From the IMG/VR virus record IMGVR_UViG_3300010276_000001: 64,000 bases of DNA, one strand, 5' to 3'. This document shows positions 15-8,554 of this stretch, one piece after another (within the stretch, counting starts at the first letter, position 1; every line of letters starts with the position of its first letter). The DNA comes from a virus. Under the pieces are notes generated by a model. That model did not search any database. It worked only from the letters and a program-made list of their open reading frames with translations, and was not told the DNA's origin. The position numbers and the translations under genes are program-made.

Positions 15-236
15 TTATATAGAAACCTTTAGAATGGATTGTAGGATATGAGCAGGTGTATTGTGTAATATAACATTAAACGCTCTTTGTTTCATTAACA
101 AAGAGTTTTTTTCTTTGCCATTAATATCATTGATACATAAAGACGCAATGTATTGTTTTTCATAGCTTCTATATATAGCATCATTACTAATAATATCAAA
201 CACTAACTTTTCTAATCTAAAGGTTTCTTTACACAT
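15..236 (-). CDS. hypothetical protein downstream of c-di-GMP-I riboswitch
   Basis: ORF track; AGGAGGGG RBS just upstream; no family recognised. Confidence 0.45.
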   Translation of the reverse strand: MCKETFRLEKLVFDIISNDAIYRSYEKQYIASLCINDINGKEKNSLLMKQRAFNVILHNTPAHILQSILKVSI

Positions 237-2573: not shown

Positions 2574-3161
2574 TTAATCACTGCGTTGTCTATATTTTTC
2601 CGCTAACTCTTTTGGTTGGACATGTGTATAAATCATGGTTGTTGACAAACTCGAATGTCCTAGCATTGTTTGTACTTCCCTAATATTCATACCGACATCA
2701 TTTAAACTTCTTGTTGCAAAAGAGTGGCGCAATGTATGCGGATGCACAAGCTTTCTCTTATCGCCATCTTGTATATAAACCCCAGCTTTCTTTGAAAGAC
2801 GGTAACATACTTCTCGTATATATCGTTGGTCAAGCTGCCCCCCTTTTAAAGTTGAGAAAAAATATAAGCTGTCAGGTCTTATCATATCCCATTTTCTAAA
2901 AGCTTCAATCGTGGTATTATCAAGTACAGTATATCGGTCCTTATTTCCTTTTGATTGCTGAATATATAGAAGACCATTTTCAAAATCAACGTCACATGCT
3001 TTTAAATCGCACACTTCTTGAACCCTTAATCCACTACGATACATTGACAACATGATTGCATAATTCCGGATTCCGGTAGGACATGATAAATTAATACAAC
3101 TCAACATTTTATTGATGTCTTTCTTATTAATGACTTTTGGCAGTTTTAAAGCCATTATCAT
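2574..3161 (-). CDS. tyrosine recombinase (Xer/integrase catalytic domain, 195 aa)
   Basis: YRSGLRVQEV, KG, HTLRHSFAT, LGHS, TTMIYTH: full R-K-H-R-H-Y set. Confidence 0.92.
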   Translation of the reverse strand: MIMALKLPKVINKKDINKMLSCINLSCPTGIRNYAIMLSMYRSGLRVQEVCDLKACDVDFENGLLYIQQSKGNKDRYTVLDNTTIEAFRKWDMIRPDSLYFFSTLKGGQLDQRYIREVCYRLSKKAGVYIQDGDKRKLVHPHTLRHSFATRSLNDVGMNIREVQTMLGHSSLSTTMIYTHVQPKELAEKYRQRSD

Positions 3162-3460
3162 TCGCCTCCTTCCTTAATTAATTCTTGTTCCGATATTTCG
3201 CCAGCCATGAGTTTGGTTAAATCATTAATTGCATCTTGCTCATTCTCATATTCCCGAAGAATCTTAACAATTCTATGTCGATTCTTACCAACCTTCATCA
3301 GTCCGTATTTATCCGGACTTTTTCTGATTATATTCATATAACCGCCTCCTAAATTATTTTTGATTTCGATAAACCCTTTGGCTGATATATTTTCATAGTC
3401 AAATATGAAGGCAAGTAGTTCAGCAAATTTATTGTTTTCGTACTTTATTTTTTTAATCAA
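3158..3460 (-). CDS. hypothetical phage protein
   Basis: ORF track; overlaps neighbours as in an operon. Confidence 0.65.
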   Translation of the reverse strand: MIKKIKYENNKFAELLAFIFDYENISAKGFIEIKNNLGGGYMNIIRKSPDKYGLMKVGKNRHRIVKILREYENEQDAINDLTKLMAGEISEQELIKEGGE

Positions 3461-4261: not shown

Positions 4262-4290
4262 TTGACATTTAGATTTTATTATTGTATAAT
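4262..4290 (+). promoter_or_regulatory. perfect sigma-A promoter, antisense to the leftward operon
   Basis: TTGACA (4262-4267), 17 bp, TATAAT (4285-4290). Confidence 0.75.
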
Positions 4291-4483
4291 TTTATCAGTG
4301 TAACAAACACATTAGATGTATTGAAATTTGTATGATTTTATACAAGTTTCAAGTGTAACCGATACACGTTGGTGTAGCAAGATTTTCAAACATAATAAAA
4401 CACTCTCCTTTTCTGCCGTCATTACGGCATATTATTTATTGTACCAGCTCACCAGCTGGGAAAATAGCTCATCAGCTACATTT

Positions 4484-4548: not shown

Positions 4549-5811
4549 TTACACCGCCTGTACGGTTTCTTTGAATTCATATTTATGTAATTGCCAGTCG
4601 TCCATATAAACCCCAACAAAATCACTCCATTTGCTTTTAGTGACTTTTCGCTGTACCGGTTCTCCGATAAATTGCCCCGGAACGGGTACACCGTTTTCAA
4701 CTGCTATCTGTTGAAGCTTAACACCTGTTGCGGTTGTTTTTACAACCTGATATGCTCTATATACTGCGTTTTTTGTATCCATGCCGTAATTTATAGTTAA
4801 AATGTCACCAACTTTGTACGGATTATCAATCTTTTTTGTTGCTGGGTCCTTTGCTTCGATAATTTCTGTAATTGCCGCATAAGGTTCAGTTAATACGCCG
4901 CCTGACGCACCGCCGTCAAGGATCTTAAAAGTCACATTCACCGGACCGGCTGAAAGAATTTCGCACCTTCCCCAACGTCTCATTTTGACAATATAACCAA
5001 CTTTGATATTATCCTTGTTAAACCTATTCCCTCCGATTTCGTCCAGTTTATTTTCAAGGAATGCTTGTTTGTCTATCTCCCACTCCATTTTCTCAAGCGT
5101 TTCCTTAATATATTCATTGTATCTTTCGGCCGGAATGATTTCGCCGTTATAATCTTTAATTTCTTCGCCCTGTTCAATTCTGTGCAGTATTTCCTCATAA
5201 TAGACAATATTCTTTTCGAGTTTTGCAATTGTTGTTTTACATTCTTTAATTCTGTTATGTAAATAAACCGGGTCTTTTAGCTGCGCCATGCTTGCGGTTT
5301 GCCTTGCAGTTTCTGCCCTGCTACTGAAATATTCGCTTTTCCGGTATTCGTCAAAACCTTTGCGGTACCGTTCAAAAATGCGTTCTCTTTGCCTAGCAAA
5401 TGCCTGACTTCCAGCATGGCCGGCGATAATCGGCTGCGTAAAAAATGCTGTATCGCCACTAAAACGATTTAATTCAGATTGAAGGCTTTCCGCTCTTTTC
5501 TCTGCATTTGCTGCATGTTGTTCCATTCGTTCCGCTCTTGACTCGGCTCTTTCTGCTTTTCTCTCTAGCTCTTCAGCATATGAAAGCTTTTCGCCAACTT
5601 TGCCGCCATCTTCTAATCCAAGCTTTTGAGCAACTTGTAAAGCCCAGTAATGATTCTTTGTGCTTCTGCTTACCCATGCGCCAGCTGCTCGGCTCCATAA
5701 AAAATTGCTTTTAATTTCTTTTTTTAAATCATCTGATAAAGCCATATATTCCTCTTTATCAAAATGCAACTCAACCTTGCTTGTTTCTTTATTGATAATG
5801 TATTTTCCCAT
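4549..5811 (-). CDS. DUF3560-like domain protein
   Basis: Coiled coil ERKAERAESRAERM followed by FFTQPIIAGHAGSQAFARQRERI, resembling the DUF3560 QPILVGHHSE motif. Confidence 0.7.
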   Translation of the reverse strand: MGKYIINKETSKVELHFDKEEYMALSDDLKKEIKSNFLWSRAAGAWVSRSTKNHYWALQVAQKLGLEDGGKVGEKLSYAEELERKAERAESRAERMEQHAANAEKRAESLQSELNRFSGDTAFFTQPIIAGHAGSQAFARQRERIFERYRKGFDEYRKSEYFSSRAETARQTASMAQLKDPVYLHNRIKECKTTIAKLEKNIVYYEEILHRIEQGEEIKDYNGEIIPAERYNEYIKETLEKMEWEIDKQAFLENKLDEIGGNRFNKDNIKVGYIVKMRRWGRCEILSAGPVNVTFKILDGGASGGVLTEPYAAITEIIEAKDPATKKIDNPYKVGDILTINYGMDTKNAVYRAYQVVKTTATGVKLQQIAVENGVPVPGQFIGEPVQRKVTKSKWSDFVGVYMDDWQLHKYEFKETVQAV

Positions 5812-5953
5812 CTGATAAACCTCCTAATATTTTAATATGATTCCGGGATTGCTCCTGGATATTTTCAACGCCAAACACCGGAACGCACTAGCAAAATGCT
5901 AAAATGCGTCCCGGTGACGGTGAGCTATGCTCGTGTCGTAGGGTTCTATTCAA

Positions 5954-6536: not shown

Positions 6537-6923
6537 TTATATCTTTATTTGGAATAACAATTCGGACACATCTTTTATTATTGCACTGTTAAGGTCATGC
6601 GTGGTTAAAACACTCACGATATAATTGCCATCATCGTCTTTGTAACGCTCTGCTAATCCTCTCAAATTGTTCTGCATTGTAAAAGGTATTTCAGAAATCA
6701 CTATTGAGCGTTTTCCATTATGATTATCATAATAGATTGCACGATTGTTTGGGTCATCTGCTTCATTTACAATGATGTGCAAAGTGTGTAAACAATGCCA
6801 ACGAGTGGAAGCACCGTTCTTATCAAATTCAACATCCATTTTATCTTTAATGATTTGGGCTAACCAACTTGTATCTTCAAGTTTTCTAACGGTATTTGAT
6901 ATTCTTGATTTTCTCATAATCAA
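6537..6923 (-). CDS. hypothetical protein
   Basis: 128-aa ORF with AAGGGAGAG RBS. Confidence 0.7.
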   Translation of the reverse strand: MIMRKSRISNTVRKLEDTSWLAQIIKDKMDVEFDKNGASTRWHCLHTLHIIVNEADDPNNRAIYYDNHNGKRSIVISEIPFTMQNNLRGLAERYKDDDGNYIVSVLTTHDLNSAIIKDVSELLFQIKI

Positions 6924-7024
6924 TCTCTCCCTTTCAACCTGTACGGATTATTTCCGTATTTCTTAATTATATTGTACGTCAATTTTCCGTACATGACAGG
7001 AGCCGGAGCTCCTGCCATCTGCAA

Positions 7025-7369
7025 TTATTCGAAGATTGCCTGTATCTTTCTAACTGTGCCCCCGTAAGGTATTTTCGGGGCATTGGTACGGTATACTTCA
7101 ATTTTGATTCTGCCGTACTTGGTAATATAGCCCTCTATGCAGGTTGTTTCTGCTCTCCAATCATAACTATTAGGTACTGCATATTTCTTAACACCTTCAA
7201 TTCTTTTCAAATACTTTCTTTCTACCTTGTCAGACAGTGCTTTTTCTCTGACCTCTTGCAATGCTGCTACAAAATTTTTCACATCTTCAAGATCCATTGT
7301 GCGGGCGCTGCATCTTGCCTGCACTTGATTCAATCTTTCTTCTACCTTCTTCATGTTCAATCTTGCCAT
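7025..7369 (-). CDS. hypothetical phage protein
   Basis: ORF 7025..7417; AAGGAGAG RBS favours ATG at 7369 (MARLNMKKVEE). Confidence 0.75.
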   Translation of the reverse strand: MARLNMKKVEERLNQVQARCSARTMDLEDVKNFVAALQEVREKALSDKVERKYLKRIEGVKKYAVPNSYDWRAETTCIEGYITKYGRIKIEVYRTNAPKIPYGGTVRKIQAIFE

Positions 7370-7451
7370 TTTGCTCTCCTTTCCGGTCCAATTCAATTTT
7401 GGACCCTTCCCGGACATTTCCGGGGCTGGCGTCGGTCGCCACCCTTTTTTA

Positions 7452-7512
7452 TTTTGGCTGTCTCATCAGTGCTGGTTGCCAACCCAACAGACCGCCGAAG
7501 CGGTTTCGACAA
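7452..7512 (-). ncRNA. type II hammerhead ribozyme with pseudoknot
   Basis: Minus strand: UUGUC-GAAA-CCGC(UUCG)GCGG-UC^-UGUUGG(GUUGGCAA)CCAGCA-CUGAUGA-GACA-GCCAA. All core nucleotides and stems I-III present, GUC cleavage triplet at 7492-7490, loop I UUGGC pairs with downstream GCCAA. Confidence 0.93.
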
Positions 7513-7513
7513 T

Positions 7514-7702
7514 TTAAAACACTGAATAAATAACTATTTCATAGTCACATGTACAGCGTCTTTTGTATTCGATACCTAACCTGTTTAGGTGTCGTTCAAT
7601 TCTTTTGTGCTCTTGATAGGGGACATTGATGTTTATGCCTCCGCCAAAATTCGAGACATATTCTATATTGTTGCGCTTCAGATATTTTTTTAAAATACTC
7701 AT
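7514..7702 (-). CDS. small hypothetical phage protein (62 aa)
   Basis: AAGGGAGGG RBS favours ATG at 7702; flanked by two hammerheads. Confidence 0.7.
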   Translation of the reverse strand: MSILKKYLKRNNIEYVSNFGGGININVPYQEHKRIERHLNRLGIEYKRRCTCDYEIVIYSVF

Positions 7703-7722
7703 GAATAAACCCTCCCTTAAAT

Positions 7723-7776
7723 TTCCCGTTTCGCCGGAGCTTCCCCGGCTCATCAGCAGGCTATGCCTGGACGGAA
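7723..7776 (-). ncRNA. type III hammerhead ribozyme
   Basis: Minus strand: UUCCG-UC^-CAGGC(AUA)GCCUG-CUGAUGA-GCCGG(GGAAGCU)CCGGC-GAAA-CGGGAA. Complete core; GUC triplet ends at 7770. Confidence 0.92.
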
Positions 7777-7786
7777 TGGCACCGGC

Positions 7787-8296
7787 TTATATTAAAGCCA
7801 GCGCCTCATTGATTGTAATACTGACAGCTTCTTGTCTCATTTCTTTCTTGATAAACCTTGCTAGTTTTATGAAGAACTTTATATCATCTTCGCTGACGTC
7901 CTCTAAGTGAACGCTTGCTATGATTAGATTATCATATACTACCTGTTGCAGTTCTTCACTGTACCAACTACCAAGGCCTTTTTCCAAAGTGGGAACCATT
8001 TCATATTTTTTATAAATTTTTTGAATTACTGTGGATATTACTTTTTTTAACTTCTCTTTGCCTGCTACTTCATTGATGTTATATGTATCAGGAATAAACA
8101 AAGATAAAGTATTAAGTTCTCTGTCCTTTTTTAGTTCGATAAACTCATTGCCGGAAACATTGCTATAAAGTTCACCTGTATCAAAGTTCAACGTTGCGCC
8201 ACCATGTTGTTTTGCAGCTTCTTCAAGATTGTTAACTTTAACTTTGTTTGAAAGGAAAAAGCTGAAATTGAACTTTTTTGAATCAATTTTCTTCAT
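7787..8296 (-). CDS. hypothetical phage protein
   Basis: 169-aa ORF with AAAGGAG RBS, directly after the twister. Confidence 0.75.
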   Translation of the reverse strand: MKKIDSKKFNFSFFLSNKVKVNNLEEAAKQHGGATLNFDTGELYSNVSGNEFIELKKDRELNTLSLFIPDTYNINEVAGKEKLKKVISTVIQKIYKKYEMVPTLEKGLGSWYSEELQQVVYDNLIIASVHLEDVSEDDIKFFIKLARFIKKEMRQEAVSITINEALALI

Positions 8297-8329
8297 TTTG
8301 ATTGATAACTCCTTTCGTTTTAGCTTATA

Positions 8330-8385
8330 CCCTCTGCATTTTTCCAGGCTTGGGACTGGCTGCTACTATGTGACAGGCTGCATTA
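8330..8385 (-). ncRNA. twister ribozyme (type P1-like core)
   Basis: Minus strand: U^AA-UGC-A-GC-CUGU..GCAG-CCAG-UCCCAAGC-CUGG-AAAAAU-GCA-GAGGG. P2 UGC/GCA, P4 CCAG/CUGG, invariant L4 UCCCAAGC and 3' GAGGG match the twister consensus; P1 is weak. Confidence 0.85.
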
Positions 8386-8479
8386 CTTTCCACGCTCTTC
8401 CCTTCCGCTCCCCCTAACCAGCGCCACCGCCTTTGGGGTATGACCCGCATTATGCAGGCTCATCAGGAATTGCGCTTAC

Positions 8480-8497
8480 ATTCAGTTTTCAAGGTTC
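8480..8497 (-). promoter_or_regulatory. boxA-like antitermination element
   Basis: GAACCTTGAAAACTGAAT resembles Firmicute rRNA-operon boxA-region sequences; about 25 nt after the promoter. Confidence 0.45.
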
Positions 8498-8525: not shown

Positions 8526-8554
8526 ATTATACATCCAATGTATGTACATTTCAA
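8526..8554 (-). promoter_or_regulatory. strong sigma-A promoter of the ribozyme-containing operon
   Basis: Minus strand TTGAAA, 17 bp, TATAAT. Confidence 0.8.

Follow-up and report, generated by a model that had tools for sequence, protein, structure and literature searches.

The minus strand of a 64,000-nucleotide viral sequence (IMG/VR record IMGVR_UViG_3300010276_000001, the whole of which is referred to here as the window) carries at 7511-7452 a canonical type II hammerhead, predicted from its sequence to cleave itself. Downstream of it, three GC-rich hairpins fill the spacer up to the RBS of a small gene, ORF114. Such ribozymes, their pseudoknot and this operon layout have been known since 2011 (Perreault et al., PMC3088659), and the ribozyme described here is an ordinary new example. 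The hairpin block is the only unusual feature of the locus, a genuine outlier and a single-locus curiosity. On balance, we favour an explanation in which the hammerhead cuts the operon message and the hairpins form a self-contained leader with a stabilising or insulating role.

Identity and structure of the hammerhead

The ribozyme and the linker that follows it were located on the same strand:

7452-7511, minus strand: type II hammerhead ribozyme (RF02276 match and direct sequence reading)
7445-7453, minus strand: A-rich single-stranded linker AAUAAAAAA after the pseudoknot (sequence reading)

A scan of the whole window with the Rfam model RF02276 gave 41.0 bits (E = 6e-5) at minus-strand 7511..7452, against a gathering score of 37 bits, and the match ran over the full length of the model (positions 1-66). 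It persisted when the hammerhead region was scanned by itself. Because the score lies above the gathering score, and because the core and helices are legible in the sequence, the element can be identified as a type II hammerhead.

Direct reading of the minus strand showed a complete catalytic core (G7507, A7506 and A7505, with CUGAUGA at 7469-7463), as an earlier note on this DNA had described when it placed a hammerhead with a perfect core at this position. Stem II is open and has 4 bp (C7508-G7462, U7509-A7461, G7510-C7460 and U7511-A7459). Stem III, which the same note had given as C(UUCG)G, consists of 5 bp (A7504..C7500 / G7495..U7491) closed by a UUCG loop (cUUCGg) to form the hairpin 7504-7491, and the A15.1-U16.1 core pair is present as A7504-U7491. 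The NUH triplet is GUC ending at C7490, which places the predicted cut after C7490 in the context GUC/U, where the slash marks the cut. Stem I has 6 bp (U7489..G7484 / C7475..A7470; hairpin 7489-7470) and an 8-nt loop, G-UUGGC-AA. Five nucleotides of this loop, UUGGC (7482-7478), are complementary to GCCAA (7458-7454), which follows stem II on its 3′ side, and the UUGGC/GCCAA pseudoknot that had been reported is borne out at its full 5 bp.

The MFE structure of the isolated element was the nested hammerhead fold. A topology pattern, CGAAAC..GTC..CTGATGAG, matched once in the window and in 0 of 100 shuffled sequences. The element thus presents the core, the three helices (II open, I and III looped), a score at or above the threshold of the family and a pseudoknot of at least 4 bp. 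Natural type II hammerheads with a loop-I pseudoknot were described, together with disruptive and compensatory mutants, by Perreault et al. (PMC3088659), and most of the ribozymes in that study had a pseudoknot of at least 4 bp linking loop I to the nucleotides immediately 3′ of stem II. The present element resembles those ribozymes, and RF02276 as a whole, in its core, open stem II, looped stems I and III and 5-bp pseudoknot. The hammerhead starts 2 nt past the stop codon of ORF62, TAA (7516-7514).

Comparison with other type II hammerheads

When viral and metagenomic contigs were scanned with the 3′ half of the ribozyme, type II hammerheads turned up at 21 loci (13 of 14 viral and 8 of 8 metagenomic matches), alike in layout and with compensatory differences in stems I and III. 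A broader, topology-only scan raised the number of structurally validated comparators to 136, or 137 with the copy in the window; the comparator loci are L001-L014, L135-L142 and L143 onwards. The comparators found by the 3′-half scan were chosen by their tail sequence and so say nothing on covariation in the pseudoknot. Fourteen comparators share the architecture of the ribozyme in the window, and the changes in their stems I and III are compensatory.

The hammerhead in the window was typical of this sample in every respect. Stem II is mostly 3-4 bp long among comparators, and nearly all of them likewise carry an A/C-rich linker 3′ of the pseudoknot. UUCG is the commonest stem III loop (14/137), UNCG and GNRA together account for 51 of 87 tetraloops, and in most of the sample a stop codon lies 0-3 nt from the start of the ribozyme. 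The UUCG, UNCG and GNRA loops and the adjacent stop codon fit a role for stem III as a protective 3′-terminal hairpin of the upstream message.

Some uncultured phages hold dense arrays of type II hammerheads, with eight matches within about 4 kb at locus L222 and four each at L152 and L215.

A block of three hairpins between the ribozyme and the RBS

The spacer between the ribozyme and ORF114 was resolved into three hairpins and the start of the gene:

7424-7444, minus strand: hairpin 1, GGGUGGCG-ACCGA-CGCCAGCC; 7 bp with one G.G mismatch, about -12.6 kcal/mol
7410-7423, minus strand: hairpin 2, CCGGA-AAUG-UCCGG; 5-6 bp, loop AAUG, about -9.4 kcal/mol
7385-7405, minus strand: hairpin 3, GGUCCAA-AAUUGAA-UUGGACC; 7 bp, 7-nt loop, -8.5 kcal/mol
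7025-7384, minus strand: SD and ORF114, the gene downstream of the ribozyme (SD AAGGAG 7381-7376, ATG 7369, stop 7025)

The segment 7444-7385 folded at -28.4 kcal/mol (z = -3.62), a value that 0 of 200 shuffled sequences matched. The block is 61% GC in a window of 35% (34.6%). The series of three hairpins running up to the RBS, as first proposed, is therefore real and beyond chance. The SD, AAGGAG (7381-7376), and the ATG at 7369 come directly after hairpin 3, and the block spans the gap between ribozyme and RBS exactly, touching neither. The loop of hairpin 2 contains an in-frame ATG (7417) without an SD.

Relative to other members of RF02276, the ribozyme itself is no different; it is the spacer to the start codon that differs, being 82 nt long and structured here, against a typical 10-50 nt that are unstructured. 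Measured from CUGAUGAG to the start codon, the distance was 92 nt here against a median of 27 nt in the comparators. The 75 nt downstream of the ribozyme folded at -30.0 kcal/mol, and only one of 135 comparators gave a lower value; this was L230, in a phage of 66% GC, where the downstream region holds the second of two tandem hammerheads. For the 25 hammerheads at loci with a GC content below 42%, downstream energies reached -16.6 kcal/mol at the lowest. Nearly all of the 136 comparators, those from low-GC phages included, were without such hairpins, which argues that the hairpins are unnecessary for ribozyme function or for survival of the product in general.

Structured leaders occur occasionally among the comparators. 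At L009, the type II hammerhead at 6894-6953 (minus strand) has a 9-bp AU-rich hairpin between the pseudoknot and the RBS, and at L180 a long imperfect hairpin occupies an 86-nt spacer after the type II hammerhead. Neither is a triple GC-rich block. The two hammerhead copies of L230 (minus strand) stand in direct tandem, 16 nt apart.

To our reading, the block is self-contained and does not open the RBS. The mean unpaired probability from SD to AUG was 0.867 with the hairpins and 0.865 with the hairpins deleted, and fell to 0.72 ± 0.09 when the block was shuffled. The hairpins thus make no difference to predicted RBS accessibility, which speaks against translation control.

A pattern search for hairpin 1 in viral contigs returned chance GC-rich matches only, and a search for tRNA-like elements found none. 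A decoy or core-pairing tail was also considered and rejected: the spacer is without a complement of CUGAUGAG, and the stem II strand UGUC recurs in it once (7416-7413), which is near chance.

Organisation of the operon

The hammerhead belongs to a leftward operon whose upstream part contains the following features:

8526-8554, minus strand: promoter-like site TTGAAA-17-TATAAT (11/12 consensus positions; consensus match only)
8326-8389, minus strand: twister (type P1) candidate before ORF169 (RF03160, 58 bits against a gathering score of 67.2, E = 1.9e-10, full-length match)
7787-8296, minus strand: ORF169 (weak match to phrog_3543; RBS AAAGGAG upstream)
7723-7777, minus strand: type III hammerhead candidate before ORF62 (RF00008, 46.4 bits against a gathering score of 48.5, E = 5e-7)
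7514-7702, minus strand: ORF62 (RBS AAGGGAGGG, ATG 7702, in frame with the listed ORF 7753..7514; stop TAA 7516-7514)

The order is thus promoter-like site, twister, ORF169, type III hammerhead, ORF62, type II hammerhead, three hairpins and ORF114. Beyond ORF114 come more small ORFs, a DUF3560 protein and an integrase-family gene. The twister and type III hammerhead candidates come from a permissive Rfam scan and both score below gathering; in the latter, CUGAUGAG, CGAAAC and a GUC cleavage site are legible. The three ribozymes or candidates share one operon, and each stands directly before an RBS and a small ORF.

Several hammerheads are known to flank single prophage genes, in polycistronic RNAs that are cleaved (PMC3088659), and the placement found here, between a stop codon and an RBS in a multi-ribozyme phage operon, is like theirs. 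The locus also resembles known prophage ribozyme clusters (PMC3088659, PMC6765202) in having three ribozymes on one transcript, each before a small gene, near a region that contains an integrase. It differs from them in that the classes are mixed (twister, type III and type II in three consecutive spacers) and in that plain hairpins occupy spacers further downstream. What biological role the numerous self-cleaving ribozymes of phage operons play is a standing question (PMC6765202).

Behind the twister and the type III hammerhead, the spacers are plain and unstructured. Two ribozyme-free spacers further along the minus strand were even more structured than the hairpin block: 7024-6924 folded at -35 kcal/mol (z = -5.5), with hairpins right up to the RBS, and 5953-5812 at -46.6 kcal/mol (z = -4.8), with an 18-bp hairpin. 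Stable intercistronic hairpins are therefore a trait of the operon and not of the type II hammerhead. The spacers 6924-7024 and 5812-5953 (minus strand) may themselves be nuclease processing or protection sites that stand in for the upstream ribozymes.

In the gap between the promoter-like site and the twister (8395-8480, minus strand), CUGAUGAG is followed by a short hairpin, without GAAA or a proper cleavage triplet and without an Rfam match. This element could be a decayed hammerhead or a chance occurrence.

Conservation at homologous loci

Homologues of ORF114 were found in four clusters only. The coding sequence of one of them, P0001, is 93% identical to ORF114, and its gene call extends 9 codons into the spacer. 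The P0001 leader retains the SD region (G-K-E-N/S-K-M) and can be aligned equally well in two ways, with a 21-nt deletion of hairpin 3 or at equal length from TTG 7396. In neither alignment does this single homologue retain the 3′ arm of hairpin 3, where compensatory change may have occurred. The view that hairpin 3 had simply been lost there, in a 21-nt deletion, was set aside, as the equal-length alignment from TTG 7396 fits equally.

Homologous spacers were sought in genome, viral and metagenome collections by way of ORF114, its family alignment, ORF62 and ORF169, and none was found. Searches of cultured phages and plasmids with blastn and tblastn returned no homologous spacer. A hammerhead-anchored DNA pattern recovered eight unrelated hammerheads from metagenomes and no homologous spacer, and a spurious antisense ORF, 7261-7533 on the plus strand, searched as a translated readout of the spacer, had no homologues.

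Matches to ORF114 were absent from Pfam, PHROG and the Atlas, and its AF2 model was poor (pLDDT 59.7).

A proposed role for the hairpin block, and alternatives

In the explanation we favour, the polycistronic transcript would be cut after C7490 by the type II hammerhead, the third of three ribozymes in the leftward operon. We infer that the cut takes place in vivo; activity in vivo is on record for type II hammerheads in the vicinity of phage-like genes (PMC8782182). After the cut, the ORF62 message would have the very stable cUUCGg hairpin of stem III as its 3′ end, with a 2′,3′-cyclic phosphate. The ORF114 message would start with a 5′-OH at U7489, a nucleotide that immediately becomes part of stem I and is held in place by the pseudoknot of loop I with the tail. 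The earlier note held that the two products stay paired through stem II. Physically this is untenable: the helix is only 4-5 bp long and, as the sole helix between them, contributes only about -3.3 kcal/mol as a duplex, so that the products should part, and we expect them to separate through this short stem.

The three hairpins would then be a local addition, most likely a self-contained folded leader between the ribozyme and the RBS. Such a leader would shield the ribozyme tail and the RBS against mispairing with adjacent sequence, and would add barriers to 5′-to-3′ or endonucleolytic decay of the released ORF114 mRNA. By analogy with known systems, it could both insulate and stabilise that message. 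It does not act as a 5′-terminal cap, because the first hairpin of the block lies 45 nt from the predicted new 5′ end and the 5′-terminal hairpin is stem I. The proposal that ribozyme and hairpins make up a composite module for 5′-end protection or translation control therefore stands in part. The block is an outlier, and 5′-end protection by hairpins is plausible in a Bacillota-type phage, again by analogy; translation control is disfavoured by the unchanged access to the RBS, and nothing was found that links the hairpins to the ribozyme.

The last point bears on a rival explanation, in which these are ordinary intercistronic hairpins (sites of nuclease processing or protection, of pausing or of protein binding) unrelated to the ribozyme, and there is no composite module. 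The more strongly structured ribozyme-free spacers of the same operon argue for it, as do the unaltered RBS access and the want of such a block at the 136 other type II hammerheads. It overlaps with the favoured explanation, however, because a leader can stabilise the message without any link to the ribozyme. Furthermore, the block fits the gap between ribozyme and RBS exactly, and neither a nuclease site nor a binding protein was identified. We regard complete independence of the hairpins from the ribozyme as somewhat unlikely.

A second possibility is that hairpin 1 and the adjacent A-run act on the other strand, as an intrinsic terminator that ends a cis-antisense RNA over the start of ORF114 or blocks rightward read-through. 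Read on the plus strand, 7422-7456 is a GC-rich stem followed by UUUUUUAUUUU (-13.8 kcal/mol) and was flagged by a terminator scan. Similar plus-strand hairpins occur in the two other structured spacers (5842-5859 and 6941-6959), and there are strong promoter-like sites on the plus strand at 4262-4290 (12/12) and 4985-5012 (11/12 sigma-70-type positions). The count of terminator-like sites is nevertheless near chance (6 against 3.9 ± 2.1), and the nearest upstream promoter-like site on the plus strand (7188-7215) matches only 9 of 12 positions, with no convincing promoter or gene upstream. Moreover, the A-rich run is accounted for by the A/C-rich linker that nearly all comparators carry 3′ of the pseudoknot, and hairpins 2 and 3 are left unexplained. 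A plus-strand terminator is thus quite improbable.

That the block is a separate functional RNA, whether a self-cleaving ribozyme that is degenerate or unclassified or a sensor controlling the hammerhead, is in our view highly improbable. In its favour, ribozyme-rich phage loci have yielded new ribozyme classes (PMC6765202), the one more stable downstream region, that of L230, is a second hammerhead, and the block is strongly GC-enriched. Against it, each of the three hairpins is simple and folds on its own, and the block lacks a junction, internal loops and anything resembling a conserved core. When 7340-7530 was scanned permissively with Rfam (E up to 10), the only matches beyond the hammerhead were noise of at most 16 bits, with neither a ribozyme nor a riboswitch among them. 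The spacer holds no complement of the catalytic core, and the window has no second copy of hairpin 1 or hairpin 3 and no repeat or mobile element there.

Relation to known leaders and processing sites

The favoured explanation, a stabilising or insulating leader, has parallels in engineered and natural systems. RiboJ, in which a hammerhead and a hairpin precede the RBS, raises mRNA and protein levels (PMC6206723). The present locus shares with RiboJ (the sTRSV hammerhead with a 23-nt hairpin) the order of ribozyme, hairpin or hairpins and RBS, and a folded leader before an exposed RBS; stable hairpins lie between ribozyme and RBS and would be retained on the cleaved mRNA. The differences are that RiboJ is engineered, uses another hammerhead permutation and has one hairpin, whereas here three natural hairpins give no in-silico gain in RBS exposure (0.867 against 0.865). 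The likeness is one of functional analogy only, and not of membership.

Among natural systems, the locus is comparable to cggR-gapA and glnRA of B. subtilis (PMC11780869), where a cut after the upstream cistron is followed by a structure that could set the level of the processed mRNA. In natural operon-processing sites of Bacillus, stabilising stem-loops come next after the cut (PMC11780869). At cggR-gapA and glnRA the cut is made by RNase Y, the product has a 5′-phosphate and the stem-loop is at the very 5′ end (PMC11780869). Here, in contrast, the predicted cut is made by a ribozyme, the end would be a 5′-OH, stem I is terminal and the additional hairpins start 45 nt downstream of that end.

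In Bacillus, RNase J1 degrades the 5′-OH RNA that glmS ribozyme cleavage leaves behind (PMC10810187, PMC11780869). A bolder version of our explanation would make the hairpins a natural counterpart of RiboJ, in which the hammerhead and hairpin leader together let a 5′-OH mRNA escape RNase J, with ribozymes and plain hairpins serving as interchangeable punctuation of the operon. We hold this version to be unlikely. If it were true, a destabilising cut, of the kind in which the glmS 5′-OH end leads to RNase J decay, would become a stabilising one.

Should the stability of the released mRNA prove to depend on the hairpins, the long-standing view that phage ribozymes divide long messages into pieces, each stable in its own right, would gain support, and ribozyme-hairpin insulators would have a natural precedent. 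With three ribozyme classes, two hairpin-only spacers and one structured ribozyme leader on one transcript, the locus offers a compact natural test bed.

Phage context and other features of the window

The window encodes phage genes, among them a terminase, a 1701-aa tail protein, RecT, a G39P-type loader, a DnaD-like domain and a sigma factor. The terminase is at most 26% identical to that of any cultured phage, which sets this phage well apart from cultured ones. The GC content of 34.6% and the AGGAG-type RBSs point to a phage of Bacillota type.

Terminator-like hairpins on the plus strand at 4414-4429, 5842-5859, 6941-6959 and 7427-7441 lie in spacers downstream of the rightward promoter-like sites, which are antisense to the leftward operon. 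The integrase-family catalytic domain is in a 195-aa ORF (2574-3161, minus strand), the start of which is overlapped by 4 nt by a 100-aa ORF (3158-3460); together, the ORFs of 2574-3460 (minus strand) could represent an integrase that is split or carries a frameshift. A full-length c-di-GMP-I riboswitch aptamer was found at 425-510 on the minus strand (RF01051, 76.7 bits), upstream of the small ORF 15-236 (minus strand) and at the far end of the leftward region.
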